A stretch of 64,000 nt of DNA from an uncultured Verrucomicrobiota bacterium (GTDB taxonomy: Bacteria; Verrucomicrobiota; Verrucomicrobiia; Palsa-1439), in assembly GCA_964541945.1 (NCBI GenBank), contig CAZISE010000003.1, positions 115,649 through 179,648 on the forward strand. The letters are read 5' to 3'. This document shows positions 1 through 11,906 of the stretch, piece by piece. Position numbers and translations under genes: made by a program. The stretch's first letter is position 1; each line of letters starts with the position of its first letter. The notes under the pieces were generated by a model, which saw only the letters and a list, made by a program, of their open reading frames with translations, had not been told where the DNA came from and made no database searches.

Positions 1-851
1 GTTTCCCCAAAGGATGATTGACGGGGACGAAACGGAATGCCGCGCCCGCGCGGCTGCGGAATGTACTCAACGGTGGGCTGACGCCGCACCGGTTGCGGAT
101 ACAACTCCATCAAATGCAGCATCTCCGGCGGCATCTCCTTGCGCACCGGCAACCCCAACGCCACGGCCCGTTCATAGGTAATCGGATAATCATGCGTCCA
201 CGTCCCGCTGGTCAACAACCGGGCAAGCTCTTCGGCTTTCTCCGCCGGAAACTTCTCCGCCAACAACTCCCGCACCTGCGCGTTCATCTGGTCAATCGCC
301 TTGCGCGCCTGATCGGCCAAAATCAATGTCTGATCCTCGATTTCCATCACCGGCTTCTGCTGTACGGCCGCCAGAATCGAGGCGGCCGGATATTGCCCCA
401 GTTGCGGGTCCACCGGCCCCAATACGGCGTGTTCGCACATGACAATCTCATCGGCCGCCAACGCGATCAACGTCCCGCCGCTCATCGCATAATGCGGCAC
501 GAACACGGTCACCTTGCCCTTGTGCCGTTGCAACGCCCGCGCAATCTGCGTGGACGCCAGCACCAGCCCGCCGGGCGTGTGCAACACAATGTCCAACGGC
601 AATTCGGGATCGGTCAGGTGAATCGCCCGGATGACCTCCTCCGAATCATTCACGTCAATGTACCGAAAAATCGGAAACCCCAGCAGACTCATCGTCTCCT
701 GCCGATGCACCAACAAAATCACCCGCGACTTGCGCTGCATCTCAATCCGCGCCAACAACCGCTGACGACTCGCCTCCAACAGCCGTTGCCGAATCACCGG
801 CTGCAACGCCGTCAACATGAAAAACACCCAAAACAACTGATTCACATCCAT
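1..851 (-). CDS. S49/SDH-family (ClpP-fold) serine peptidase, partial (C-terminus beyond window start)
   Basis: Hand translation of the minus strand from ATG at ~849-851 gives MDVNQLFWVFFMLTALQPVIRQRLLEASRQRLLARIEMQRKSRVILLVHRQETMSLLGFPIFRYIDVNDSEEVIRAIHLTDPELPLDIVLHTPGGLVLASTQIA. The HTPGG motif is typical of the SDH/S49 peptidase family. The listed + ORF 18..1610 is its low-complexity antisense shadow. Confidence 0.5.
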   Translation of the reverse strand, partial: MDVNQLFWVFFMLTALQPVIRQRLLEASRQRLLARIEMQRKSRVILLVHRQETMSLLGFPIFRYIDVNDSEEVIRAIHLTDPELPLDIVLHTPGGLVLASTQIARALQRHKGKVTVFVPHYAMSGGTLIALAADEIVMCEHAVLGPVDPQLGQYPAASILAAVQQKPVMEIEDQTLILADQARKAIDQMNAQVRELLAEKFPAEKAEELARLLTSGTWTHDYPITYERAVALGLPVRKEMPPEMLHLMELYPQPVRRQPTVEYIPQPRGRGIPFRPRQSSFGE

Positions 852-872
852 AACCATCCGCTCCTTTTCCGT

Positions 873-1628
873 TCAATCACGATAATGTCCCCACACCCAC
901 TTGTAACCGTACTCGTCCGGCTCAAATTTCCGATACCGACGCCGACGCGGCCGCCGAAACACCCAACACAACACCGCCCCCGCCACAAACCCACCCACAT
1001 GCGCCCACCACGCAATCCCACCCACATGTCCCGACGCGGCCAACGACAACGTGCCACTGAACAACTGAATCAAAAACCACCACCCCAGATACAGAAATGC
1101 CGAAATCTCAATGAAATACGGCAGGAAAAACAACGGCACCACCATGATGATCCGCGAACGCGGAAACCACAACAAATACGCCCCCATCACCCCGGAAATG
1201 GCGCCCGACGCCCCAATGCACGGCACCGTCGAACTCGGTTGACTGAAAAACTGCACCAGTCCCGCCGCCACACCGCACAACAGATAAAAAATCAGAAACC
1301 GGACCGGCCCCATCCGGTCCTCGACGTTGTCGCCAAAAATCCACAACGTCCACATGTTGCCGAGAAAATGCGTCCAACCGCCGTGCAAAAACTGATGCGT
1401 CAAAAACGGCCAGTAATCATCCACGGGAAACCCGACCCACGCCGCCCAATCGGGATGGGCGTACCGCGCCGGCACGATCCCGAACAAATAAAAAAACTGC
1501 TCCAACGACCGCTCCGACAACGTCAACTCGAAGAAAAACACCACCGCATTGACCAGAATCAGCCCCCGCGTCATCAGCGGCGTGTTCCGACTCGGAATCG
1601 TGTCGTGTAACGGGAACATGGCCGCCAT
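873..1628 (-). CDS. rhomboid family intramembrane serine protease
   Basis: 251 aa multi-TM protein with the catalytic GASGAISGVMGAY (GxSG serine) and AHVGGFVAGA (histidine) motifs of rhomboids (GlpG-like). Confidence 0.85.
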   Translation of the reverse strand: MAAMFPLHDTIPSRNTPLMTRGLILVNAVVFFFELTLSERSLEQFFYLFGIVPARYAHPDWAAWVGFPVDDYWPFLTHQFLHGGWTHFLGNMWTLWIFGDNVEDRMGPVRFLIFYLLCGVAAGLVQFFSQPSSTVPCIGASGAISGVMGAYLLWFPRSRIIMVVPLFFLPYFIEISAFLYLGWWFLIQLFSGTLSLAASGHVGGIAWWAHVGGFVAGAVLCWVFRRPRRRRYRKFEPDEYGYKWVWGHYRD

Positions 1629-1874
1629 TTTTAGCCGTTTTTCCCCCGTCTTTCAACCTCAATTCCACTCATCTGCCCCTTGGAGGAGTTGTTCTTGCCG
1701 CCAACCACCGGCCACCCTAGAATCGCCCGCCATGGCGACTGGAATCAAAACGCGACCACTACGGCGAATGACGCAGGCGGAACTGGACCTGTTCCTCGGA
1801 GAAGTCCCCAAGCTGCCGGTCGAAATCGTTGAGACCCGTGTGACAAAAAGACCTCAATCAGGGATTGATTCAGA

Positions 1875-4800
1875 ATGACCGAGAAACTTTTACGCGAAGG
1901 ACAAATCCTCAAAGGGCCGTTGTTCAACGAACCGGTGCGGGTCGAGACAGTAACGGTCAACGGAACGGATTCGTGGACGATCGGGTGCGTGGGGCTGCAC
2001 TCGGAAAAGTTCCGTCGCGTCACGCTTTCCGGGAATGACCTGAAATCGCTAACAATTCTTCCGGAGATTTTCACCTTCGACGGCAACGGGCGACAATTGC
2101 GGTTGGGCATTCAAGCCTACAGCTTGGGAATCGCCTACGAATTCGATCCGTACTTCGGCCTTTCGATCTCGCGAGTGGATCCGCTGCCACACCAACTGGA
2201 GGCGGTCTATGATTATTTGCTGAAACTGGCGCGTGTGCGTTTCCTGCTGGCCGACGACGCCGGTGCCGGCAAAACCATCATGGCAGGGTTGTTGATCCGC
2301 GAACTGAAACTGCGCGGCCTGGCGGAACGCATCCTGGTCGTTTGCCCGTCCAACCTCACGTTTCAGTGGCAGCGCGAGTTGAAAGAAAAATTCGACGAAA
2401 AGTTTCTCGTCATCAAAGGCGGCGACATCCGCGAACAGTTCGGCGTCAACCAGTGGATGGAACGCAACCAGGCCATTACATCGCTCGACCTCGCCAAACG
2501 CGCCGAAATTCTGCCCGGCCTGCGCCAGACCCACTGGGATTTGGTCATTGTGGACGAAGCGCATCGGATGTCGGCTGCGGATGAAACCCACAAGAGTCTG
2601 CGCTACAAACTGGGCGAATTACTCCGCGACAGCGCGGATCATTTGCTGCTGCTCACCGCCACCCCGCACAAGGGCGACCCGGTCAACTTCACCCTGTTCC
2701 TGCAACTGCTCGACGCCGATGCCTATGCGGATGTGCGATCCATCCGGCAGGCTATGACACAGCAACGCGCGCCGTTTTATTTGCGCCGCACCAAAGAGGC
2801 AATGGTCTATTTCCCCGAGCGGCAGCCGGACGGCAAATGGATGGCGCGGAAAATCTTCACAAAACGAATCACTCGCACGGTCGCTTTCATGCTCGATGGT
2901 CCTGAATTTGACTTGTACCGCGCCGTCACCGGGTTCATCAAGGCGCAGAGCGCAAAAGCCGCCGCCCAAGGCGATGATCTGCGAGCGCGGGCGGTCGGAT
3001 TCTTGATGTCGCTGTACCAACGACGACTGGCATCGAGCACCCATGCGCTCCGTCGTTCGCTGGAAAATCGCGCCAAACGCCTCGCCGACGCCCTGAAAAA
3101 TGCCCAGCAACTGGCCGCGCTGGCACCGCCAGAGGTACCCAGCGAAGAAGAACTCGAAGAAATGGAAGAATCCGAGCGTGAGCGGCTGGAGGAACAACTG
3201 GAAGCCGTCACGCTCGCCGGCAATGCCGAACAGGTGCGCGACGAGATCCATCAATTGAACGAACTGGCCGCCCAAGCCCGCGCCGTCGAGGAGACACTGG
3301 CCGAGGCCAAGCTGGCACGCTTGAAGGAACTGCTGCAGCAGGAAGGCTTCTTTGACCATCCCACCAAACGGTTGCTGATTTTCACCGAGTACAAAGACAC
3401 GCTCGACTATCTGATGGCACGACTCAAGGAGTGGGGGTTTAGCGTCGGATGCATCCACGGCGGCATGAAACCCGGTTCACGGGATGAACCCGGCACGCGC
3501 CTCCATGCCGAGCAACAATTCAAAGACGGCGTGATTCAAATCCTGGTTGCCACCGAGGCGGCTGGCGAGGGCATCAACCTTCAGTGCTGTCACATCCTGT
3601 TCAACTACGATATCCCGTGGAACCCCAACCGACTCGAACAACGCATGGGCCGCATCCACCGCTACGGTCAGCTCCACGACTGCCTCATCTTCAATTTCGT
3701 CGCCAGCAACACCATCGAAGGCCACGTCTTGCGCCGTCTCCTGGAAAAATTGCAGGAAATCCGCAACGCGCTCGACAACGACGCCGTGTTCAACGTCGTC
3801 GGCGAAGTTCTGCCCGCCGCTCACATCGAGCGGGTCTTGCGCGATTACTACGCCGGCAAACTCGGCGATGCCGACCTGGAAGATCGCTTGCTCCGCAATG
3901 TGGACGAGCAACATTTCCGCGCCATCTGCGAAAACGCCCTAGAAGGGCTGGCAGCCAAGAAACTCAACCTGGAAATGCTCATCGAACGCCGCGCACGCGC
4001 CCAGGAACGCCGCGTCGTCCCCGAAACCATCGCCCGTTTCCTGCGAGAAAGCGCCGAAACCGTGGCGCTCACCCTCAAACCCGTCGAGTCGCTACCGCAT
4101 ACTTTCGAAGGCATCAAGACGCCCACCGCGCTCAAGCGCTACGAGACCGACTCGACCTGGAAATTGCCGGTACTGGCCCTCAAATACCCGCGCCTCTCGA
4201 CCGACCGCGAGACCGCTGAAAAACACAATCTCGAATGGGTCACACCCGGTCACCCGTTGTTCGAGGCGTTACGCCGACACGCCCTCGAATCCGCCCGCGA
4301 ACCCTTCAGCAAGGGCGCGTGTTTCTACTCGCTCCAACACGATGCGCCCACCCGGCTCGATTTCTACCGCGCCCGCGTCGTGGACGGACTCGGCCAGGTT
4401 ATCCACGAACGACTGTATGCGGTCGAACTTTCTGAGACGGGCGCGCCCCGGCTGCGCGAGCCGGGCGTGATCGGCGACTTCGTGCCCGCCAACCCGCCGC
4501 CAATGTTGCCGGCGGTTGCCGAACTGCCTGAAGCAACCGCATGGTTCAACACGCAAGTGTTGACTGGTTTCCTCGAAGAAGTCCGCGTCGAACGCATTGC
4601 GGAGTTGGACCGTATCGCCAACCATGTCGAGTTGTCCCTGACCGAGCTGCTTCAGAAAGCCGACGAGGAAATCGGCAGGGCACAGGAGGCCATTGATCGT
4701 GGCGAACAAGGTGCCGAGGGGCGCCTGGCGCAGGCCGAAGAACGACACGACAAGTTACTCCAACGCCGCGAGCAACGCCGCCAGGAACTGCAACAGCAGC

Positions 4801-5300
4801 GCTCCCTGACCTTGCAAAGCGTCGAACGAATCACCTCCGTCCTCATCCTGCCTCACCCGGAACGACAAGCCGCCGATGTGGCTCATCTGCGGCCTAACCC
4901 GCAAACCGAAGCCGCAGCCATGCAAACCGTGATCGCCTACGAACGCAACCACGGCCGACACGTCGAGGACGTGCACGAGAAAAATCTCGGCTACGATTTG
5001 ACCAGCCTCGACCCGCAGTCCGGCGAACTGCGCCTGATTGAGGTCAAGGGACTGGGCGCTGCCAGCGGTCGCGTCCTGCTCACACCCAACGAACGGCGCG
5101 TCGCCGAGGATCGGCGCGATTGTTACTGGCTGTATGTCGTTACCCACTGCGACACCACGCCGCAGTTGCAGGAGCCGATCAAGGACCCGGCTCGGTTCCC
5201 GTGGCACGTGGTCAGCAAGGTTGAGCATTACTGGCTGGAAGTGAAAGCCCTGACCCAACCCATGCAGGTGCGGGAAACGCCCGAAGGCTACCACCCATGA
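1875..5300 (+). CDS. SNF2-family (DEAH) helicase/ATPase with C-terminal DUF3883 domain; first gene of defence-like operon
   Basis: ATG start. Walker A DAGAGKT, DEAH box VIVDEAHRM, motif III LLLTATPHKGD, helicase-C ILVATEAAGEGINLQ and QRMGRIHRYGQ. The C-terminal ~120 aa (VIAYERNHGRHVEDVHEKNLGYDLTSLDPQSGELRLIEVKGLGAASGRVLLTPNERRVAEDRRDCYWLYVVTHC) matches the DUF3883/NO-VEIN C-terminal signature. Confidence 0.85.
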   Translation: MTEKLLREGQILKGPLFNEPVRVETVTVNGTDSWTIGCVGLHSEKFRRVTLSGNDLKSLTILPEIFTFDGNGRQLRLGIQAYSLGIAYEFDPYFGLSISRVDPLPHQLEAVYDYLLKLARVRFLLADDAGAGKTIMAGLLIRELKLRGLAERILVVCPSNLTFQWQRELKEKFDEKFLVIKGGDIREQFGVNQWMERNQAITSLDLAKRAEILPGLRQTHWDLVIVDEAHRMSAADETHKSLRYKLGELLRDSADHLLLLTATPHKGDPVNFTLFLQLLDADAYADVRSIRQAMTQQRAPFYLRRTKEAMVYFPERQPDGKWMARKIFTKRITRTVAFMLDGPEFDLYRAVTGFIKAQSAKAAAQGDDLRARAVGFLMSLYQRRLASSTHALRRSLENRAKRLADALKNAQQLAALAPPEVPSEEELEEMEESERERLEEQLEAVTLAGNAEQVRDEIHQLNELAAQARAVEETLAEAKLARLKELLQQEGFFDHPTKRLLIFTEYKDTLDYLMARLKEWGFSVGCIHGGMKPGSRDEPGTRLHAEQQFKDGVIQILVATEAAGEGINLQCCHILFNYDIPWNPNRLEQRMGRIHRYGQLHDCLIFNFVASNTIEGHVLRRLLEKLQEIRNALDNDAVFNVVGEVLPAAHIERVLRDYYAGKLGDADLEDRLLRNVDEQHFRAICENALEGLAAKKLNLEMLIERRARAQERRVVPETIARFLRESAETVALTLKPVESLPHTFEGIKTPTALKRYETDSTWKLPVLALKYPRLSTDRETAEKHNLEWVTPGHPLFEALRRHALESAREPFSKGACFYSLQHDAPTRLDFYRARVVDGLGQVIHERLYAVELSETGAPRLREPGVIGDFVPANPPPMLPAVAELPEATAWFNTQVLTGFLEEVRVERIAELDRIANHVELSLTELLQKADEEIGRAQEAIDRGEQGAEGRLAQAEERHDKLLQRREQRRQELQQQRSLTLQSVERITSVLILPHPERQAADVAHLRPNPQTEAAAMQTVIAYERNHGRHVEDVHEKNLGYDLTSLDPQSGELRLIEVKGLGAASGRVLLTPNERRVAEDRRDCYWLYVVTHCDTTPQLQEPIKDPARFPWHVVSKVEHYWLEVKALTQPMQVRETPEGYHP

Positions 5301-6118
5301 CATCCGACCGATCAGACCGATCCGACCAATCTGACCGATCACCGCGCAAGCGCCTCCGACCCAGCGGCGGTTACCGCAACACCGCCAGTTTCCAGACCGC
5401 CACGATCATCTACGATGCCACCTACTGGTTCTGCGAAAAGTTCCTCGACCCGCGTTCGCGCACGGTGGACCAGATGGTGCAAGCCGCGCGCAGTGGCCGG
5501 CAAAACATTGCCGAAGCCAGCCGCGCCGCCGCCGCTTCTTCACAGACCGAGCTGCGCCTGCTCAACACCGCCCGCGCCAGCCTCGAGGAGCTGCTGCTGG
5601 ACTACGAAGATTACCTGCGCCACCGCCACCTGCCACAATGGTCGCCCGACAACCCCGAAGCGCGCGCCGTGAGGGACCTGGCGGCGCGAATGCGCCGCCA
5701 ACGCGACCAGTCTGATCAGTCCGATCCGCCTGATCCGCCTGATCAGCAGTACCGCGCGCTCTGGGCGCTCTACGCCCCGTGGCTGGAGCACGCCGACCCG
5801 GCCGTTCGCGCCAACGCGCTGATCTGCCTCATCCACCAAGCCAATTACCTGCTCGACCAGCAAATCAACGCGCTGGAGCAGGCCTTCGTGGAAGACGGCG
5901 GCTACAGCGAGCAACTCGCCGCCGCTCGGCTGGCGCACCGCGCCAAGCGCGATCAGACCGATCAGACCGATCAGGCCGATCCGTCCGATCGCATCCCCCG
6001 TTGCCCCCAATGCGGCAAGCTGATGGCGCTGCGCACCGCCAAAACCGGCAAAAAAGCCGGCAGCCAGTTCTGGGGCTGCACCGGCTACCCCGATTGCAAA
6101 GGAACCGCCCCACTATGA
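5297..6118 (+). CDS. small four-helix-bundle (PF05635-like) protein fused to a topoisomerase-type C4 zinc ribbon; contains three 9-bp repeat arrays
   Basis: The ATG overlaps the helicase stop (ATGA) and the stop overlaps the methylase start (ATGA). The 4HB-like segments are YRNTASFQTATIIYDATYWFCEKF, QMVQAARSGRQNIAEASR and ARASLEELLLDYEDYL. The C-terminal segment CPQCGKLMALRTAKTGKKAGSQFWGCTGYPDCKGT matches zf-C4_Topoisom. SDRSDRS/DQSDQSDPPDPPD/DQTDQTDQADPSD insertions come from the 9-mer arrays. Confidence 0.6.
   Translation: MTSDRSDRSDQSDRSPRKRLRPSGGYRNTASFQTATIIYDATYWFCEKFLDPRSRTVDQMVQAARSGRQNIAEASRAAAASSQTELRLLNTARASLEELLLDYEDYLRHRHLPQWSPDNPEARAVRDLAARMRRQRDQSDQSDPPDPPDQQYRALWALYAPWLEHADPAVRANALICLIHQANYLLDQQINALEQAFVEDGGYSEQLAAARLAHRAKRDQTDQTDQADPSDRIPRCPQCGKLMALRTAKTGKKAGSQFWGCTGYPDCKGTAPL
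5303..5341. repeat. 9-bp GATC-containing tandem repeat array 1 (4 units, consensus TCNGACCGA/GACCGATCN), in-frame, encodes (SDR)n
   Basis: Units tccgaccga / tcagaccga / tccgaccaa / tctgaccga read directly from sequence, at the helicase/small-gene junction. Confidence 0.8.
5705..5746. repeat. 9-bp GATC tandem repeat array 2 (about 4 units), encodes DQSDQSDPPDPPD
   Basis: tctgatcag / tccgatccg / cctgatccg / cctgatcag. Inserted in the middle of the four-helix-bundle domain. Confidence 0.8.
5951..5992. repeat. 9-bp GATC tandem repeat array 3 (4.5 units), encodes DQTDQTDQADPSD
   Basis: gatcagacc / gatcagacc / gatcaggcc / gatccgtcc / gatcgc. Sits between the 4HB domain and the Zn ribbon. Confidence 0.8.
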
Positions 6119-9108
6119 TCCCTCGCAACTGTAAACGACTCGCCGAACTCGATTTCCCCATCGCCACTGTGGGAAAACATGCGATTCGAGAGAAGCCAAT
6201 TGTTCGTAACCATCCACAGTCAATCCAGCAATGGTGGGCACGCCGGCCTCTCGCGGCTTGCCGGGCCGTGCTGCTCGGCCTGCTGTTGCCCGACCCGGCC
6301 GATCCGCTCTGCCCGGCGGAGTTCAAGAGCAAAGCGCGCGAGCTGCTCCGCAAAGTGCCCGGCCGACTCGGCAACACCGACCTCGACCTGCGCAATGCGC
6401 TGCTGAAGTTCATCGGCGATTTCGCCAACTGGGAACTTTCCTCGCACGCCACTTACCTCGAAGTCGGGCGCGGCCTGGTCAAAGCGGCTCACCCGGAAGA
6501 ACCGCCGCTTGTGGTTGACCCGTTTGCCGGCGGCGGCTCGATCCCGCTGGAAGCGTTGCGGCTCGGGTGCGAAGCGTTTGCCTCCGACCTCAACCCCGTT
6601 GCCTGCCTGATCCTGAAGGTGATGCTTGAAGATATTCCCCGGCACGGCCCGCAACTGGCCGAGGAACTGCGGCGTGTCGGCGCGCAAATCAAGGCGGCGG
6701 CCGAACGCGAATTGGCGCAGTATTACCCGGCGGATCCGGATGGGGCGCGGCCGATTGCCTACCTGTGGGCGCGGACGGTGCGGTGCGAATCGCCGCAGTG
6801 CGGCGCCGAAATCCCGCTGGTGCGCTCGTTCTGGCTCTGCAAAAAGACCGACCGCAAACGGGCGCTGCGCCTGGTGCGAGCCGACCGATCCGACCGATCG
6901 GACGGATCCGACCGATCCGTTCGATTCGAGCTGTTCACCCCTGCCCGCGATGACGAGGTGCCGCCCGGCACGGTCTCACGCGCCAATGCAACCTGCCCGT
7001 GTTGCGGTGTGGTGTTGCCGGCGGCGCGGGTGCGGGCGCAACTGGCCGCCCAACGCGGCGGCGCCGATGTGCTCTTTGACGAGCGCGGGCGACGAATCGG
7101 CGGTGCGCGGCTGCTGGCGGTGGTGACACTCAAGGACGGCGAGCCGGGCCGACACTACCGGCTGGCCACCGACCGCGATTACGAACCGGTCTGGCTAGCC
7201 CAACAAGCCGTCGCCCAACTCCCACCCGGCACCGTGCCGGATGAGCCAACGCCCGCCGGTGGCGGGGCAGGAGCAGGCCGCGCCTTCAGTGTCCAACGCT
7301 ACGGCATGCTCCAGTGGGGCGACCTCTTCACCGCCAGACAAAAACTAACTTTGGCTACTCTGGGATCGCTCGTGGGCAGACTGGAAAATGAGATTCATCG
7401 CAAACTTGTGGCATTCGTTCTTTCACGCCTTTCGGATCGACTTGCATCATTGCTCGGCTGGGACGTGGGGGGGGAGAAGTTAGGGCATGTATTTAACAGA
7501 CAAGCGCTCCCAATTGTGTGGGATTACACCGAAGGAGCACCCTTTGCCGACGCGAGCGGGAGCTACCAGAACGTTAAGGAACAAATTGAGGGTGCCGTTG
7601 ACTCTGTTAGTTCCCTCACCCGATCAGGACAAGCCCAAATTGCCGACGCCTGTGCCTCGCCCTTGCCGGATGATGCCTGCAGCGTCTGGTTCACCGATCC
7701 GCCCTACTACGATGCCGTGCCGTATGCCGATCTGTCGGATTTCTTCTTTGTCTGGCTGAAGCGGACATTGCCGGGTCATCCGTTGTTGCGTGACCCGTTC
7801 GACCCGGCCAACCCGCTGACGCCAAAAACACGCGAAGCGGTGCAGGACGAAGTCAAAGAAGCCGACGGTCGCCCGAAGGACAAGGGATGGTTTGAAGAAA
7901 CGATGGCCAAAGCGTTTGCCGAAGGCCGGCGCGTGCTCAAGGACGACGGCATCGGTTGTGTCGTGTTCGCCCACAAAACCACCGAAGGCTGGGAAGCGTT
8001 GTTGTCGGGCATGATCCGCGGCGGCTGGACAATTACCGGTTCGTGGCCGATTGCCACCGAGCGGCCGGGACGGCTGCGCTCGCAAGCGTCCGCTGCACTG
8101 GCGACCAGCGTCCATCTGATTTGCCGGCCGCGCACGGACGACGCGGTGGGCGATTGGAGCGCCGTGTCGCGTGAACTGCCGCAACGTGTGCGGGATTGGA
8201 TGGAGCGGTTGGAGCGTGAAGGCGTGCGCGGTGCTGACCTGGTGTTTGCCTGCATTGGTCCTGCGCTGGAGATTTACAGCCGCTACGCCAAAGTGGTGGA
8301 CGCCGAAGACCGGGAAATCCCGTTGGGCGGCGACTCCGAAGCGCGCGAGCCGCATCGGCGCGGTTTTCTGGCTTACGTCTGGGAAGTGGTCGGCCGCATT
8401 GCGCTGGAGCAGGTGCTCGGCAGCGCCGAAGCACGCGCCACCAACGGCGTTGCCGGCGCGCTGGAAGAAGACGCCCGGTTGACCGCGCTGTTTCTCTGGG
8501 CGCTGCAAACCACTGCCGGCGATCCGCCCGATCTGACCGATCCGACCGATCCGCCCGATCCGTCCGATCAGGAGGAAGAGGAAGCCCCCAAACCTGCGCG
8601 CGGGTTCTCGCTGGTCTTCGACGTGGTGCGCCGGTTCGCCCAGCCGCTGGGGATTCACCTGCCGGACTGGGAAGGGCGGATCATCGCCACCGAGAAAGGC
8701 GTGGTGCGGCTGTTGCCGGTGCATGACCGGGCCGAGCAGTTGTTCGGCAAAGAGGGCGCGCAGGCGATTGCTTCCCGGCTGGAACGGGAAACGCAAGGCG
8801 ACGCGCAGTTGGTGTTGTTCCCCGACCGGCAAGAGGCCGCCGCGCCGCGGGTGCAGGGCCGGCGCCGGCGTAGTCGCGGCGAGGAGGCCGTTGCCACGCA
8901 GCGTGCCGCGACGACGCTGGATCGGGTGCACGCGGCGATGCTGTTGCAGGCCAGCGGCAAGTCGAATGCGTTGCGGGCGATGTTGCAAGCTGAGCGCGAG
9001 CGCGGTCCGGAGTTTCTGCGCTTGGCGAACGCGCTCTCAGCGTTGTATCCTCGCGACAGCGAGGAAAAACGGCTGCTGGACGCCATGCTATTGGCCATGC
9101 CCCGCTAA
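6115..9108 (+). CDS. DUF1156-family Zn-ribbon N6-adenine/N4-cytosine class DNA methyltransferase (DPPY motif)
   Basis: The true start is ATG at 6115 (M I P R N C), overlapping the upstream stop. The listed 5779 start is a frame-overlapping extension. The DUF1156 N-terminus is FPIATVGKHAIREKPIVRNHPQSIQQWWARRPLAACRAVLL. SAM motif I is VVDPFAGGGSIPLEALRLGC and catalytic motif IV is WFTDPPYYDAVPY. The Zn ribbon is CESPQCG...CPCCG. It contains two 9-mer arrays. Confidence 0.8.
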   Translation: MIPRNCKRLAELDFPIATVGKHAIREKPIVRNHPQSIQQWWARRPLAACRAVLLGLLLPDPADPLCPAEFKSKARELLRKVPGRLGNTDLDLRNALLKFIGDFANWELSSHATYLEVGRGLVKAAHPEEPPLVVDPFAGGGSIPLEALRLGCEAFASDLNPVACLILKVMLEDIPRHGPQLAEELRRVGAQIKAAAERELAQYYPADPDGARPIAYLWARTVRCESPQCGAEIPLVRSFWLCKKTDRKRALRLVRADRSDRSDGSDRSVRFELFTPARDDEVPPGTVSRANATCPCCGVVLPAARVRAQLAAQRGGADVLFDERGRRIGGARLLAVVTLKDGEPGRHYRLATDRDYEPVWLAQQAVAQLPPGTVPDEPTPAGGGAGAGRAFSVQRYGMLQWGDLFTARQKLTLATLGSLVGRLENEIHRKLVAFVLSRLSDRLASLLGWDVGGEKLGHVFNRQALPIVWDYTEGAPFADASGSYQNVKEQIEGAVDSVSSLTRSGQAQIADACASPLPDDACSVWFTDPPYYDAVPYADLSDFFFVWLKRTLPGHPLLRDPFDPANPLTPKTREAVQDEVKEADGRPKDKGWFEETMAKAFAEGRRVLKDDGIGCVVFAHKTTEGWEALLSGMIRGGWTITGSWPIATERPGRLRSQASAALATSVHLICRPRTDDAVGDWSAVSRELPQRVRDWMERLEREGVRGADLVFACIGPALEIYSRYAKVVDAEDREIPLGGDSEAREPHRRGFLAYVWEVVGRIALEQVLGSAEARATNGVAGALEEDARLTALFLWALQTTAGDPPDLTDPTDPPDPSDQEEEEAPKPARGFSLVFDVVRRFAQPLGIHLPDWEGRIIATEKGVVRLLPVHDRAEQLFGKEGAQAIASRLERETQGDAQLVLFPDRQEAAAPRVQGRRRRSRGEEAVATQRAATTLDRVHAAMLLQASGKSNALRAMLQAERERGPEFLRLANALSALYPRDSEEKRLLDAMLLAMPR
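6883..6927. repeat. 9-bp GATC tandem repeat array 4 (5 units), encodes DRSDRSDGSDRSVRF inside the methylase Zn-ribbon region
   Basis: gaccgatcc / gaccgatcg / gacggatcc / gaccgatcc / gttcgattc. Confidence 0.8.
8521..8571. repeat. 9-bp GATC tandem repeat array 5 (5.5 units), encodes DPPDLTDPTDPPDPSDQ linker in the methylase
   Basis: gatccgccc / gatctgacc / gatccgacc / gatccgccc / gatccgtcc / gatcag. It uses a different codon phase (DPT) from arrays 1 and 4 (DRS). Confidence 0.8.
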
Positions 9109-9110
9109 AA

Positions 9111-9155
9111 CCGATCCGCCCGATCCGACGGATCCGACTGATAGGACTGATCATG
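9111..9155. repeat. 9-bp GATC tandem repeat array 6 (about 5 units) filling the methylase–ATPase intergenic spacer and running into the ATPase start codon
   Basis: ccgatccgc / ccgatccga / cggatccga / ctgatagga / ctgatcATG. Non-coding except for the last unit. Confidence 0.75.
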
Positions 9156-11906
9156 GAACCCTGGTACAAAATCGTGACGCCGCGCAAAGAAGTCCGGGAG
9201 GGACGATCGTTCAACCCGGACGATTTTGCCATTCATCTGGAACAGGTCGTGGCGGGCAAAGCGCCGGAGGATTACCGGGATGCCCGGCAGTTTTTCGCGC
9301 GGACATGCTGGACGAGCGCCCTGCGCTTGCACGCCGGCATGGTTCTCCGCCGACTGGACGGCAAAACCGAGAACACCTCCCCGGTGATGACGTTGGTGAC
9401 ACAGTTCGGCGGCGGCAAAACCCACACGCTGACGGCGTTGTATCACCTGGCCACAAGCGGCAAAAAAGCCGCCAGCTACCACGGAGTCGAGGACTTGCTC
9501 AAGGAAGCCCGGCTTAGCGAAGTGCCGCAAGCGCGGGTCGCCGTGTTCGTGGGCAACGCCTGGGATCCGCACGAGGGACGCGAGACGCCGTGGATGGATG
9601 TTGCCCGGCAACTGGCGGGCGAGAAGGGCGTAGCATTGCTCGGCAAAGACGCCAAGACCACACCGCCCGGCACCGAGGCGTTGGGCCGGATTTTTGAGGC
9701 GGCCGGCGGGCCGGTGTTGATTCTGTGCGATGAAGTGCTGAATTTCGTCAACCGACATCGCAAACTGGCTGAGCCGTTCCACGCCTTTATCCAGAACCTG
9801 ACGGTCGCCATGACCGGCACGACGCACGGGGCGGCGATGATCAGCCTGCCACGCAGTCAGGTGGAGATGACCGAGTGGGATGCGCAGTGGCAGGACAAGA
9901 TCACCAAGGTCGTTAAACGGGTTGCCAAGGATTTGATTGCCAACGACGAGACGGAAATCAGCGAGGTGGTGCGTCGGCGGTTGTTCGAGGACTTGGGCGA
10001 CGAAAAGATTCTCAAGACGGTGGCCCGAACGTTTGCCCATTGGTGTTTCGAGCGTCGGGCGCAGTTGCCGCCCGAATGGACGGCGGTGGACGTGGCAGCG
10101 ACGGAAGCGAAAGCGAAAGAGTTTTTGCGAAATCGGTTTGAGCGTTGTTATCCGTTTCATCCAGCCACGTTGTCGGTATTTCAGCGCAAATGGCAGACGC
10201 TGCCGCAGTATCAACAGACCCGTGGCACGCTGGCGATGCTGGCGCAGTGGATTTCGTGGGCCTACCGGAACGGGTTCCAACACGCTCGACGCGAGTCGTT
10301 GATCACCATCGGCTCGGCGCCGTTGGATGTGGCGGAGTTCAAGGCGACGGTGTTGGGTCAACTCGGCGAAGCGCGACTGGCGGCGGCGATTGATACCGAT
10401 ATTGCCGGACCGAACTCGCACTGCCGGGCGCTGGATGCCGACACCCGCGGGCCGCTGCGCGACATTCACCGTCGGGTCGGCACAGCGATTCTGTTCGAGT
10501 CGTCAGGCGGCCAGGTCAACCGGGTGGCGCATTTGCCGGAGTTACGGTTTGCCATCGGCGAGCCGGACGTGGAAACAACCTCGGTGGATAACGCGGCGCA
10601 TGCGTTGGAAGCGCGGGCGTTTTTCATCAGCCGGGTCGGCTCGGACGGCTTCCGCATCTATCACAAGGCGACGATCCGAAAGGCGGTGGGCGACCGTCGG
10701 GCGTCGTTGGACGAGGACAGCGAGATCAAACCGGCGATGCGCAAGCTGGTGGAGACGGAGTTTCGGCGGGGAGCAACCGTGCCGCTGGTGCTGTTTCCCG
10801 CGGATGGCAGCGAAGTGCCGGATTCGCCGCGATTGACCGTGGTGGTGCTGGCTCCCGAAACGGAATGGAGCGGGCAGAACCCATTGCGCGCACAGATCGC
10901 CGAGTGGACGAAGCGGCGGGGCAAATCGGATCGGTTGTATCCGGCGGCGTTGGTGTGGTGCGTGAAAAAGCCCGGCCGAGATTTTCGCGAAAAGGTGGAG
11001 TTGTGGCTGGCGTGGAAACGAGTGGCACGGGAAGTGGCCGACGGCACGCTGGGGGCGGATTACGATAAAGCCGACCGGGCAGAGATTGAGGCCAAGGTTC
11101 GAGCTGCCGAAGAGGAAGCCAAAGACGAAGTTTGGGGCAGCTACCGGTATGTGATTGTAGCGGATGGAACGGAAACCGACGGCCTGAAGGTGATTGATCT
11201 CGGTGCCGGTCACGCCAGTAGCCATGAGACGTTGAGTGGACGGGTGATCCTCGCGTTGAAAACGCAAAGCTTGCTCAACGACTCGGTCGGGGCCGGTTAC
11301 CTCGAACGCAACTGGCCGGCGGCGTTGAAGGAGACGGGTGCATGGCCGTTGTCGGGCTTGCGCCAGAGTTTCCTCAACGGATCGCTGACGCGGCTCCTCG
11401 ATCCCGACGCCGTGCTGCGCGGCAAGATTCCCGAATTCGTGGCCCGGGGCGAGTTCGGTCTCGCTTCCGGGCCGAAACCGGACGGCACCTACGAAACCGT
11501 TTGGTTCGAGCAGCCGATTTCAGCGGATGAAGTCATGTTCGAGCCGAATGTGTTCCTGCTGACCAAAACAAAAGCCAGGGCGCTAAAATCCGGTGCGACA
11601 ACGGTGGTGGTTGTCCCACCCGAATCGCCGAAACCTTCGGAACCGCAACCGAAGCCGGAGCCGGGCAAGGAATCAGGCCCGGCGCAACTGGTGATGTTGA
11701 CCCTCAGTGGCAGTGTGCCACCAGAGGTCTGGAATCGGCTCGGCACCAAAATCCTGCCCAAGCTGAAAACCGGCAACAACCTCAAGGTGGACGTCGCTTT
11801 CACCGTAACCGTCAAAGCCGATGTCGCCAAAAGTCTGCGGCCAGACTTGCAGCAGAGTCTCAATGACCTCGGGATCTCCGACAAAGTGCGGATTTCGGAA
11901 AACTGA
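9153..11906 (+). CDS. DUF499-family P-loop ATPase (defence-associated); last gene of the operon
   Basis: 917 aa. The Walker A region is VMTLVTQFGGGKTHTLTALYHL, which I recognise as the DUF499 signature. There is a Walker B-like LILCDEV. The long C-terminal region lacks other recognisable domains. Confidence 0.75.
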   Translation: MEPWYKIVTPRKEVREGRSFNPDDFAIHLEQVVAGKAPEDYRDARQFFARTCWTSALRLHAGMVLRRLDGKTENTSPVMTLVTQFGGGKTHTLTALYHLATSGKKAASYHGVEDLLKEARLSEVPQARVAVFVGNAWDPHEGRETPWMDVARQLAGEKGVALLGKDAKTTPPGTEALGRIFEAAGGPVLILCDEVLNFVNRHRKLAEPFHAFIQNLTVAMTGTTHGAAMISLPRSQVEMTEWDAQWQDKITKVVKRVAKDLIANDETEISEVVRRRLFEDLGDEKILKTVARTFAHWCFERRAQLPPEWTAVDVAATEAKAKEFLRNRFERCYPFHPATLSVFQRKWQTLPQYQQTRGTLAMLAQWISWAYRNGFQHARRESLITIGSAPLDVAEFKATVLGQLGEARLAAAIDTDIAGPNSHCRALDADTRGPLRDIHRRVGTAILFESSGGQVNRVAHLPELRFAIGEPDVETTSVDNAAHALEARAFFISRVGSDGFRIYHKATIRKAVGDRRASLDEDSEIKPAMRKLVETEFRRGATVPLVLFPADGSEVPDSPRLTVVVLAPETEWSGQNPLRAQIAEWTKRRGKSDRLYPAALVWCVKKPGRDFREKVELWLAWKRVAREVADGTLGADYDKADRAEIEAKVRAAEEEAKDEVWGSYRYVIVADGTETDGLKVIDLGAGHASSHETLSGRVILALKTQSLLNDSVGAGYLERNWPAALKETGAWPLSGLRQSFLNGSLTRLLDPDAVLRGKIPEFVARGEFGLASGPKPDGTYETVWFEQPISADEVMFEPNVFLLTKTKARALKSGATTVVVVPPESPKPSEPQPKPEPGKESGPAQLVMLTLSGSVPPEVWNRLGTKILPKLKTGNNLKVDVAFTVTVKADVAKSLRPDLQQSLNDLGISDKVRISEN

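Follow-up and report, generated by a model that had tools for sequence, protein, structure and literature searches.

Why should a single short DNA unit recur head to tail at six sites within one operon, where it is read as protein in two different phases and in one place is not read at all? The question is raised by a stretch of 64,000 nucleotides from an uncultured Verrucomicrobiota bacterium (assembly GCA_964541945.1, contig CAZISE010000003.1, positions 115,649 to 179,648 of the forward strand; hereafter the window), in which the genes hmaA, hmaB and hmaC of an Hma defence system share an operon with an accessory gene, whose product joins a four-helix bundle (4HB), a four-helix suffix and a zinc (Zn) ribbon. 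A first, sequence-only reading of this DNA had noticed the arrays, whose 9-bp unit is built around GATC, and had tied them to the defence operon and possibly to its methylase. The comparisons reported here show that all six belong to a short tandem repeat of wide occurrence, the skeleton of which is kept in any frame, translated or not. Its typical places are the DNA directly behind a stop codon, the spacers between cistrons, and loops or linkers that tolerate insertions, and it clusters in horizontally mobile gene sets. As to its role, we give roughly even chances to the reading that this widespread nonamer spreads locally and is kept as an array for recognition of double-stranded DNA (dsDNA), with the 4HB protein as its putative ligand in this operon.

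Six arrays of a nonamer in one operon

Tandem Repeats Finder (TRF) returned six period-9 arrays (5302-5341, 5704-5744, 5950-5990, 6877-6919, 8520-8569 and 9110-9142) and no other of at least 3.5 copies in the 64 kb. The spaced pattern GATC-N5-GATC-N5-GATC has 12 matches, which fall without exception within 5714-9134; 100 shuffles of the window gave an expectation of 0.00. GATC overall is neither enriched nor depleted (285 observed vs 265 expected). The sequence-only reading was therefore right that no such repeat occurs elsewhere in the window, as both TRF and the spaced-GATC count match only 5.3-9.2 kb, and its number of arrays, their gene placement and their reading phases were borne out by TRF, the open reading frames (ORFs) and the sequence itself. 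Its count of about 28 GATC sites on a strict 9-bp pitch needs correction to 26 in-register sites, the pitch being broken by one 18-bp step in each of arrays 1 and 6, where a single degenerate unit (AATC, GATA) is found.

All six arrays are given on the forward strand. Array 1 (5301-5341; ~4.4 units) lies directly after the hmaA stop, beginning two codons past an ATGA stop/start overlap, and encodes the N-terminus of the accessory protein, M-T-SDR-SDR-SDQ-SDR-S (phase 1). Array 2 (5705-5746) forms the linker between the 4HB and the suffix helices (DQS-DQS-DPP-DPP-DQQ, phase 0), and array 3 (5951-5992) that between the suffix module and the Zn ribbon (DQT-DQT-DQA-DPS-D, phase 0). Two more lie in hmaB, where array 4 (6878-6927; DRS-DRS-DGS-DRS-V, phase 1) takes the place of a short hairpin loop and array 5 (8521-8571; DPP-DLT-DPT-DPP-DPS-DQ, phase 0) falls within a hypervariable acidic linker. 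Array 6 (9111-9152) is non-coding and fills the 44-nt hmaB-hmaC spacer, its final units decaying into a Shine-Dalgarno (SD) sequence (AGGA) and abutting the hmaC ATG. Arrays 1 and 4 are thus read as S-D-R or D-R-S, GATC starting at codon position 2, and arrays 2, 3 and 5 as D-x-S/T/P, GAT being a codon. In sum, arrays 1-3 are family-typical linkers of the accessory gene, arrays 4 and 5 occupy permissive sites of HmaB, and array 6 is a spacer.

Constraint on the nucleotides

The skeleton GATC-N-G-W-C-N is common to 134 arrays among the matches listed in the genome scan described below, with A or T at position 7 in 82% of units though the search pattern did not force it. Both orientations of the unit (CGACC and GGTCG) are mixed inside arrays, from which it follows that the skeleton is its own reverse complement. 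In 204 kb of sequence fetched by protein identity, and so independent of any DNA pattern, TRF found period-9 arrays of this type in 31 of 31 cases, at 3.1-6.2 units. The test of codon usage was restricted to loci fetched in the same manner, which frees it from the bias of the DNA search pattern. In phase-0 arrays Asp is written GAT 67 times and GAC twice, compared with 356 and 615 (37% GAT) elsewhere in the same genes (p = 2e-25); in phase-1 arrays the 24 Arg codons are CGA (19) or AGA (5), NGA accounting for ~11% of Arg codons elsewhere (p = 4e-16 for CGA), and Ser is TCN throughout. The 120 closest homologues of the accessory protein have an N-terminal repeat (R/G)-S-(D/V/A/G) and two internal linkers D-(P/R/Q/L)-(S/T), and these residue sets are exactly the coding capacity of NGA-TCN-GNC and GAT-CNG-WCN. 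Untranslated copies also occur, in array 6, in the 5' untranslated region of a stand-alone accessory gene (locus L129) and in phage spacers.

Close relatives tell the same story. Loci L121 and L122 are identical to the window, and L123-L125 are syntenic relatives diverged from it by ~5%, in which all six arrays keep their position and unit number. Between the window and L123, differences affect 8 of 192 skeleton positions, 23 of 90 free positions and, over the operon, 349 of 3018 third codon positions; each of the two contrasts reaches significance (p = 8e-4 and 4e-4), though intra-array conversion could add to that between skeleton and free positions, which is accordingly supportive and not proof of selection. 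Non-coding array 6 has a divergence of 4.4%, below the operon average, and an unchanged length in L123-L125 and L187, and in array 5, the most diverged array between strains, the changes are confined to free positions. Overall, the codon test, the strain divergence, the residue sets of the 120 homologues and the untranslated copies strongly support constraint on the arrays as DNA and not as peptide, in agreement with what had been proposed from their mixed phases.

The further suggestion that slippage adjusts linker length finds no support on short timescales, since copy number is identical in every assembly compared at 0-5% divergence; exact-protein look-ups and a variable-gap metagenome scan found no copy-number variant. 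Nor do the arrays resemble phase-variable contingency repeats, the 9-bp unit being frame-neutral, the arrays lying outside promoter spacers and copy-number polymorphism being absent among the close strains compared. Adjacent units are identical in 35% of cases, and this, combined with the lack of palindromic co-variation and with inconsistent folding, points to arrays that grow by tandem duplication and are not hairpins. A role as RNA hairpin, terminator or cruciform was rejected, as folding z-scores of the six arrays are inconsistent (-3.5 to +0.8) and the free positions do not co-vary; complementary free-position pairs are in fact depleted, and the stem-loop palindromes typical of the dispersed elements REP/BIME and RPE (see below) are missing. 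Diversification of the kind mediated by diversity-generating retroelements was likewise rejected, there being no reverse transcriptase in the operon, no adenine specificity at the variable positions 5, 7 and 9, and an invariant A in GATC.

Distribution in genomes and phages

One genome per species was scanned for four GATC at 9-bp pitch with G6 and C8, a pattern of 22 specified bases for which ~0.07 chance matches were estimated. At least 120 stretches were found. Among the matches listed, to which the following counts apply, most come from Planctomycetota, Verrucomicrobiota, Lentisphaerota and Hydrogenedentota, with others from Acidobacteriota, Myxococcota, Desulfobacterota and further groups, and some genomes have many separate array-bearing contigs. 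Confident ORFs contain 74 of the arrays, distributed over the three phases as 39/16/19 and about half of them no farther than 10% of the ORF length from one of its ends; 60 more lie in no confident ORF. The host ORFs identified by Pfam (n=72) include modules of non-ribosomal peptide synthetases, tRNA synthetases, 1-deoxy-D-xylulose 5-phosphate (DXP) synthase, isocitrate lyase, PhoH and transporters, and a DNA methylase once in 72. Arrays in intergenic DNA are found 2-50 nt from stop codons, with an excess between convergent genes; the ORFs next to them (105, Pfam) belong to unrelated housekeeping families, and no recurrent transposase, methylase or 4HB gene was found in these 105. Specificity for defence was rejected on the same 72 host and 105 neighbouring ORFs. 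The notion of a repeat confined to, or characteristic of, the defence operon is thus not supported, given at least 120 loci in housekeeping genes and intergenic DNA and the phage structural operons; scattering through unrelated genes, which the sequence-only reading had named as an observation that would count against it, is what other genomes contain.

A scan of viral contigs gave 52 stretches with arrays. In L186 (Mu-like head module, 100-6050) and L181 (tail module, 1130-4340) a single array occupies nearly every intercistronic spacer, in the order stop, 1-3 nt, 4-6 units, GATC, ~6 nt, AAGGAG, ~6 nt, ATG, which is also the layout of array 6. The arrays of these two modules are all G-rich on the sense strand. 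Transcriptional polarity as a general property was rejected (28 vs 26 arrays), orientation being uniform only within a locus. Unusually long arrays of 13 to 20+ units were also seen (L002:6923-7052, L070:2042-2171, L101:4273-4384, L151:948-1068 and L178:12581-12755), mostly in apparently non-coding DNA or in ORFs with low GC content at third codon positions. A literature search on the repeat, its peptides and the family models, which did not cover all journals, found no published description of such arrays.

The accessory gene and its arrays

The accessory gene (5297-6118, forward strand; 273 aa) overlaps hmaA upstream and hmaB downstream by ATGA. Its product passes the curated cut-offs of both four-helix-bundle suffix models, with 73.7 bits for TIGR04258 (cut-off 40) and 27.2 for TIGR02436 (24), and that of Zn_ribbon_Top1 (37.7; cut-off 32), and scores 24.9 bits with Pfam 23S_rRNA_IVP, under the 33.8 cut-off of that model. 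The best folds in the Protein Data Bank are the S23/intervening-sequence (IVS) four-helix bundles 2gsc and 2rld (probability 0.99-1.0, weak E-values). In an AlphaFold2 model (mean predicted local distance difference test score, pLDDT, 82; helices 30-109), the low-confidence non-helical segments coincide with arrays 1-3 and nothing else: residues 1-16 (pLDDT <50), the loop at ~140-147 (65-72) and residues 222-230 (<50). The family is large, with at least 7,989 homologues at E < 1e-10. These share 70-92% identity and span Verrucomicrobiota, Kiritimatiellae, Nitrospira, Acidobacteriota and one gammaproteobacterium, the closest named relatives being metagenome-assembled genomes (MAGs) of Kiritimatiellae and Verrucomicrobiota. 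The 23S rRNA IVS protein family has been counted among CRISPR-associated genes (PMC10910872).

The 120 closest homologues reveal the positions and phases of arrays 1-3 to be traits of the family, array 1 recurring in position and phase in most of them. The use of two phases is no quirk of this locus but is conserved in the 4HB gene family. Unit number in distant homologues is 2-6. Most members read the 5' array in phase 1 and L104 reads it in phase 0; in L129 it is intact, untranslated and upstream of a strong SD sequence, and in other members it is decayed or absent, which suggests an intercistronic array that became coding when an upstream ATGA start was used. A lone 88-aa ORF at L052:1414-1677 is made up of a Top1-type Zn ribbon with a GATC array behind it, suggesting that a cistron of its own is possible for each module of the 273-aa protein.

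The accessory gene lies between hmaA and hmaB in five lineages: the window with L123, L126, L127 (Limisphaera), L128 (Nitrospira) and L134. In L131, a Verrucomicrobia MAG, it belongs to a type III-B CRISPR cmr operon, with an ATGA overlap (L131:1599-15969), and in L129 it stands alone beside ars and thioredoxin genes. GATC nonamer arrays of L131 lie in a 173-aa ORF and in Cmr3. Every locus fetched by the accessory protein has extra arrays in adjoining genes or spacers, and the rest of its 20-kb stretch is free of them. At any one locus, the arrays inside the accessory gene and those outside it are alike in the composition of their free positions, the choice of A or T at position 7 included (permutation p = 0.0007), which argues for local copying or conversion. 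The association runs in one direction, as most arrays elsewhere are without the accessory gene in the sequence examined: its protein is encoded in 6 of the at least 120 loci fetched by DNA pattern alone, and a search near other arrays with the family hidden Markov model and the NIAEG signature added nothing to these six.

Within HmaB, arrays recur at a few sites (numbered by residues of the window protein), namely ~260 in the window, L127 and L128; ~320 in L128 and L134; ~365 in L128; and ~805 in the window, L127, L128 and L134. In homologues without arrays the site of array 4 is KVVRPKGETPRVEFEIF, a short hairpin loop that also takes insertions of ~190 aa, and that of array 5 is a hypervariable acidic linker. 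Two such in-frame insertions, in P0144 and P0164, fall at window HmaB residues ~255-268; the one in P0164 has a precomputed Pfam match to Y1_Tnp (PF01797, IS200/RAYT-like), and the one in P0144 looks like the same domain. Among the 120 closest HmaB homologues three bear arrays, their nearest neighbours being array-less, and in a rough neighbour-joining tree the smallest clade that contains all array-bearing HmaBs holds 84 of 122 sequences. This scatter argues for repeated gain or exchange of arrays. In three Hma operons lacking the accessory gene (L132, L133 and L188) no arrays were found, even though L188 is the closest relative of the array-bearing Nitrospira HmaB; its 40-nt hmaB-hmaC spacer is ordinary sequence. 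Arrays comparable to arrays 4-6 are thus present in 5 of 5 Hma operons with the accessory gene and 0 of 3 without it (Fisher p ~0.018). In the Hma operons examined, arrays occur only with the accessory gene and do not track the methylase, and arrays 4-6 are companions of the former. The proposed link to the adjacent methylase is contradicted both by these three operons and by arrays beside 4HB genes that have no methylase, in the cmr operon and at the stand-alone gene.

The Hma operon and other features of the window

The operon contains HmaA, a DUF1156 HmaB and a DUF499 HmaC, and so belongs to the Hma system. The array-free hmaA (1875-5300, forward strand) encodes an SNF2 helicase with a NOV_C nuclease domain (PADLOC HmaA PDLC00659, E=5e-175; Pfam SNF2-rel_dom, Helicase_C and NOV_C). 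The amino-methyltransferase gene hmaB (6115-9108, forward strand; PADLOC E=1e-101, Pfam DUF1156), with a DPPY motif and arrays 4 and 5, has a product 100% identical to P0121. The ATPase gene hmaC (9153-11906, forward strand; PADLOC E=8e-98, Pfam DUF499) is array-free, and an exact look-up of its protein gave no match. HmaB and HmaC fall short of the NCBIfam equivalog cut-offs of the anti-phage DUF1156 and DUF499 models. In Halomonas, where Hma has been characterised, HmaA by itself protects against T4, and a methylation role of HmaB like that in restriction-modification (RM) was not found; the same study reports gene insertions between hmaA, hmaB and hmaC in ~66.5% of hma operons generally (PMC11232893). 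The window shares the gene order and the presence of an insertion, here between hmaA and hmaB (PMC11232893); it differs in that the insert encodes a 4HB-suffix/Zn-ribbon protein, belongs to no known defence system and brings repeat arrays. Further small inserts in the gaps of related operons (L127:13902-15788, L128:13957-14695, L132:3516-6946) comprise PDDEXK_3, DUF2283, MNT/HEPN pairs and SLFN_AlbA_2, in agreement with the reported insertion hotspot of hma loci.

Two blocks of hmaB diverge from L123 well beyond the rest. HmaB residues ~405-515 (window 7327-7660) have 42-54% protein identity to L123, against 96-98% for the remainder, and a GC content of 0.53 vs 0.65 gene-wide. Two Logan assemblies, independent of each other and without a difference from the window, both stop exactly at 7326. 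The block directly precedes the DPPY motif and has the look of an exchanged or hypervariable module, possibly a specificity determinant. The other block, at 6100-6300 (the hmaB 5' end, in the DUF1156 region), has 26-28% nucleotide divergence vs ~6% operon-wide. Upstream of hmaA, a 13-bp tandem repeat, CCCACCCACATGT, occurs in ~3.2 copies at 990-1032, where ORF 18-1610 (forward) overlaps a rhomboid-like gene at 873-1628 (reverse). Rfam models detect one tRNA and nothing else over the window, and its GC-skew profile has no usable signal of replication polarity.

What the arrays may do

A symmetric skeleton that persists on either strand, whatever the frame and also where nothing is translated, is most simply taken for a dsDNA recognition element, and the reading to which we give roughly even chances builds on this. 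Tandem duplication would enlarge arrays to a narrow ~3-6 units, copying or gene conversion would spread or homogenise them locally, and recognition by a two-fold-symmetric, sequence-specific factor would maintain the skeleton. In the window operon the most likely ligand would be the putatively oligomeric 4HB-suffix/Zn-ribbon protein itself, which, with an Avd/IVS-like bundle and a Top1-type Zn ribbon, presents itself by analogy as the obvious candidate; binding by such a Zn-ribbon protein is compatible with the strict co-occurrence. The outcome might be stoperator-like control in cis at the cistron boundaries of the accessory gene, hmaB and hmaC, and the narrow array size and boundary position would suggest a role comparable to that of stoperators. 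Translation of some arrays would be incidental, these being nearly stop-free in all six frames and landing where disorder is tolerated. Several points weigh against this reading. The 4HB-suffix gene is absent from the examined stretch at 114 of 120 genomic loci listed and in 52 of 52 viral stretches, and phage operons are equally dense in arrays without it, which means that the protein cannot serve everywhere as ligand or source. Even in the absence of selection, concerted evolution inside arrays could keep divergence low in the skeleton and high at free positions; the co-occurrence sample, at 5 vs 3 operons, is small and could reflect a shared donor gene pool, and a 9-bp step places successive sites off one face of B-DNA.

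The main rival, which we regard as a possible though distinctly less favoured account, is that of a selfish or neutral minisatellite, functionless, drawn from a mobile pool rich in arrays (phages, defence islands), set down or copied wherever this does no harm, and homogenised by concerted evolution, with the tie to the 4HB gene reflecting shared ancestry in that pool. It accommodates the pattern of tolerated insertion (2-50 nt from stops, between convergent genes, at ORF ends, in disordered loops and in unrelated genes), the frequent identity of adjacent units, the likeness of arrays within a locus, and the dense phage clusters that lack a 4HB gene. It is harder to reconcile with one six-position skeleton across phyla, thousands of homologues and all frames, with a narrow array length of 3-6 units, with compact phage late operons that have an array in nearly every spacer in a fixed stop-array-SD layout, and with array 6 being more conserved than the operon average; neutral drift should, moreover, have fixed skeleton variants in some lineages. 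Alternatively, arrays of 36-54 bp at gene or domain boundaries might be portable homology linkers by which recombination inserts, deletes or swaps cistrons and modules in register, an idea we judge improbable. Their length matches the minimal homology used by phage recombinases, the borders of cistrons and modules are precisely where they lie, L052 has a Zn-ribbon ORF that stands alone with an array, and array-bearing HmaBs are scattered in the tree; such linkers could also account for the fusion of 4HB, suffix and Zn ribbon into one ORF through stop-free spacers, and the ~66.5% of hma operons with inserted genes would fit (PMC11232893). Yet free positions hold array-to-array identity to ~70-85%, arrays in housekeeping genes are not obviously at exchange points, and selection for evolvability is weak. 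A bolder combination, which we offer as a speculation with a small chance of being right, is that phages and defence islands share, across phyla, a gene-boundary element in the form of these arrays, which would either dock a pentameric 4HB protein of Avd/IVS type, such as the one encoded here, on their ~5 units or provide universal short homology for in-register exchange of cassettes.

The remaining accounts fare worse. Dense GATC targets for HmaB or a Dam-like enzyme, serving epigenetic self-marking or regulation, would exploit the canonical Dam site, which is the most invariant part of the unit, and HmaB does have the DPPY amino-methyltransferase motif. We nevertheless doubt this strongly, as arrays are absent from three HmaB-containing operons and present in the cmr operon, in housekeeping genes, in structural operons of phages and next to a 4HB gene that stands alone; the idea does not account for G6 and C8, whose conservation equals that of GATC, GATC is neither enriched nor depleted elsewhere in the window, and an RM-like role of HmaB was not found in Halomonas (PMC11232893). 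The units might instead be enzymatic footprints, each a 9-bp target-site duplication or fill-in scar left where a transposase or nuclease makes GA^TC cuts 9 bp apart on opposite strands, repetition of which would lengthen the arrays. The strict period, tandem growth, local clustering and occurrence in mobile DNA would agree with such an origin, as would the consensus TCNGWCNGA, which is two-fold symmetric and centred on a base. The target consensus sequences of Tn10 and Tn5 are likewise two-fold symmetric and base-centred. In searches that were not exhaustive, no recurring transposase family appeared in host or neighbouring ORFs and no array was interrupted by an element; after bacterial cut-and-paste excision, furthermore, the donor is seldom resealed in a way that retains both duplications, the stop-array-SD layout is so regular and the length so narrow that both look selected, and copy number is stable across 5% divergence, so we think this origin very unlikely. 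Least credible of all is selection on acidic, Ser/Thr-rich flexible linkers with length tuned by slippage or phase variation. Coding arrays do map to disordered linkers, with 2-6 units among distant homologues. Selection at the peptide level is, however, effectively ruled out by the codon test and the untranslated copies: synonymous positions are fixed and non-synonymous ones free, chemically unrelated residues (P/R/Q/L) alternate at one repeat position yet are all encoded by CNG codons, three phases and non-coding copies exist, copy number is identical at 0-5% divergence, and a 9-bp unit switches no frame.

If the skeleton is a recognition element, it would constitute a new cis-signal common to phage late operons, defence operons and housekeeping genes in at least eight phyla, and would provide a testable ligand hypothesis for the very large 4HB-suffix/23S-rRNA-IVS family. 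A cross-phylum boundary element, in either form, would give the large 23S rRNA IVS protein superfamily its first function and explain the embedding of accessory genes in Hma and CRISPR operons. Even if selfish, the repeat is a clean example of a DNA element that is harmless in all six frames and that can make spacers into protein linkers and fuse cistrons. On a practical level, where protein predictions contain low-complexity DPS/RSD segments, the arrays can be recognised as a cause, and they mark Hma and cmr operons that have the accessory gene.

Relation to known repeat systems

The repeat is best classed nearest to the dispersed short repeats, namely the short tandemly repeated repetitive (STRR) sequences, the repetitive extragenic palindromic (REP) elements and the Rickettsia palindromic elements (RPEs), its properties being unusual and its tie to a large, uncharacterised protein family unexplained. 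The STRR heptamers of heterocystous cyanobacteria are short head-to-tail repeats at many loci, mostly just outside ORFs, and are conserved at the DNA level. They resemble the present arrays as dispersed tandem repeats of fixed unit that are conserved as DNA; the arrays differ in their 9-bp frame-neutral unit, their reverse-palindromic GATC skeleton, their frequent translation in three phases, their spread over many phyla and phages, and their association with a specific accessory gene family. RPEs share a selfish-looking, in-frame, translated presence at surface or permissive positions of proteins. They are, however, palindromic single-copy insertions of 100-150 bp, whereas the arrays are tandem, 27-56 bp long and without hairpin potential. 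The REP elements, with their composite forms BIME and REPIN, are similarly dispersed, follow stop codons, are enriched where genes converge and are tolerated in the spacers of operons, whereas the present arrays have no stem-loop or association with REP-associated tyrosine transposases (RAYTs), consist of tandem nonamers and also occur inside ORFs. Dispersal at tolerated sites, after stops and in in-frame loops, is thus a property that the arrays share with both REPs and RPEs.

Clusters of Dam sites (oriC, pap, agn43, Mu mom) offer a local concentration of GATC and a possible epigenetic role, but lack the strict 9-bp pitch and the extra conserved G6 and C8; the arrays, for their part, have no link to a neighbouring methylase and occur in phyla where Dam and SeqA are not established. 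Nor do they qualify as 9-bp target-site duplications, neither a recurring transposase nor an interrupted array having come to light in a search that was not exhaustive. The closest functional analogy for the proposed mechanism is provided by the stoperators of cluster-A mycobacteriophages such as L5, which bind the repressor and stop elongation. Like them, the arrays place many copies of a short motif at gene boundaries throughout operons, as seen for arrays 1 and 6 of the window and for nearly every spacer of L186 and L181. Stoperators are single, asymmetric 13-bp sites that keep one orientation with respect to transcription, whereas the arrays described here are tandem, symmetric nonamers that also inhabit bacterial housekeeping genes.

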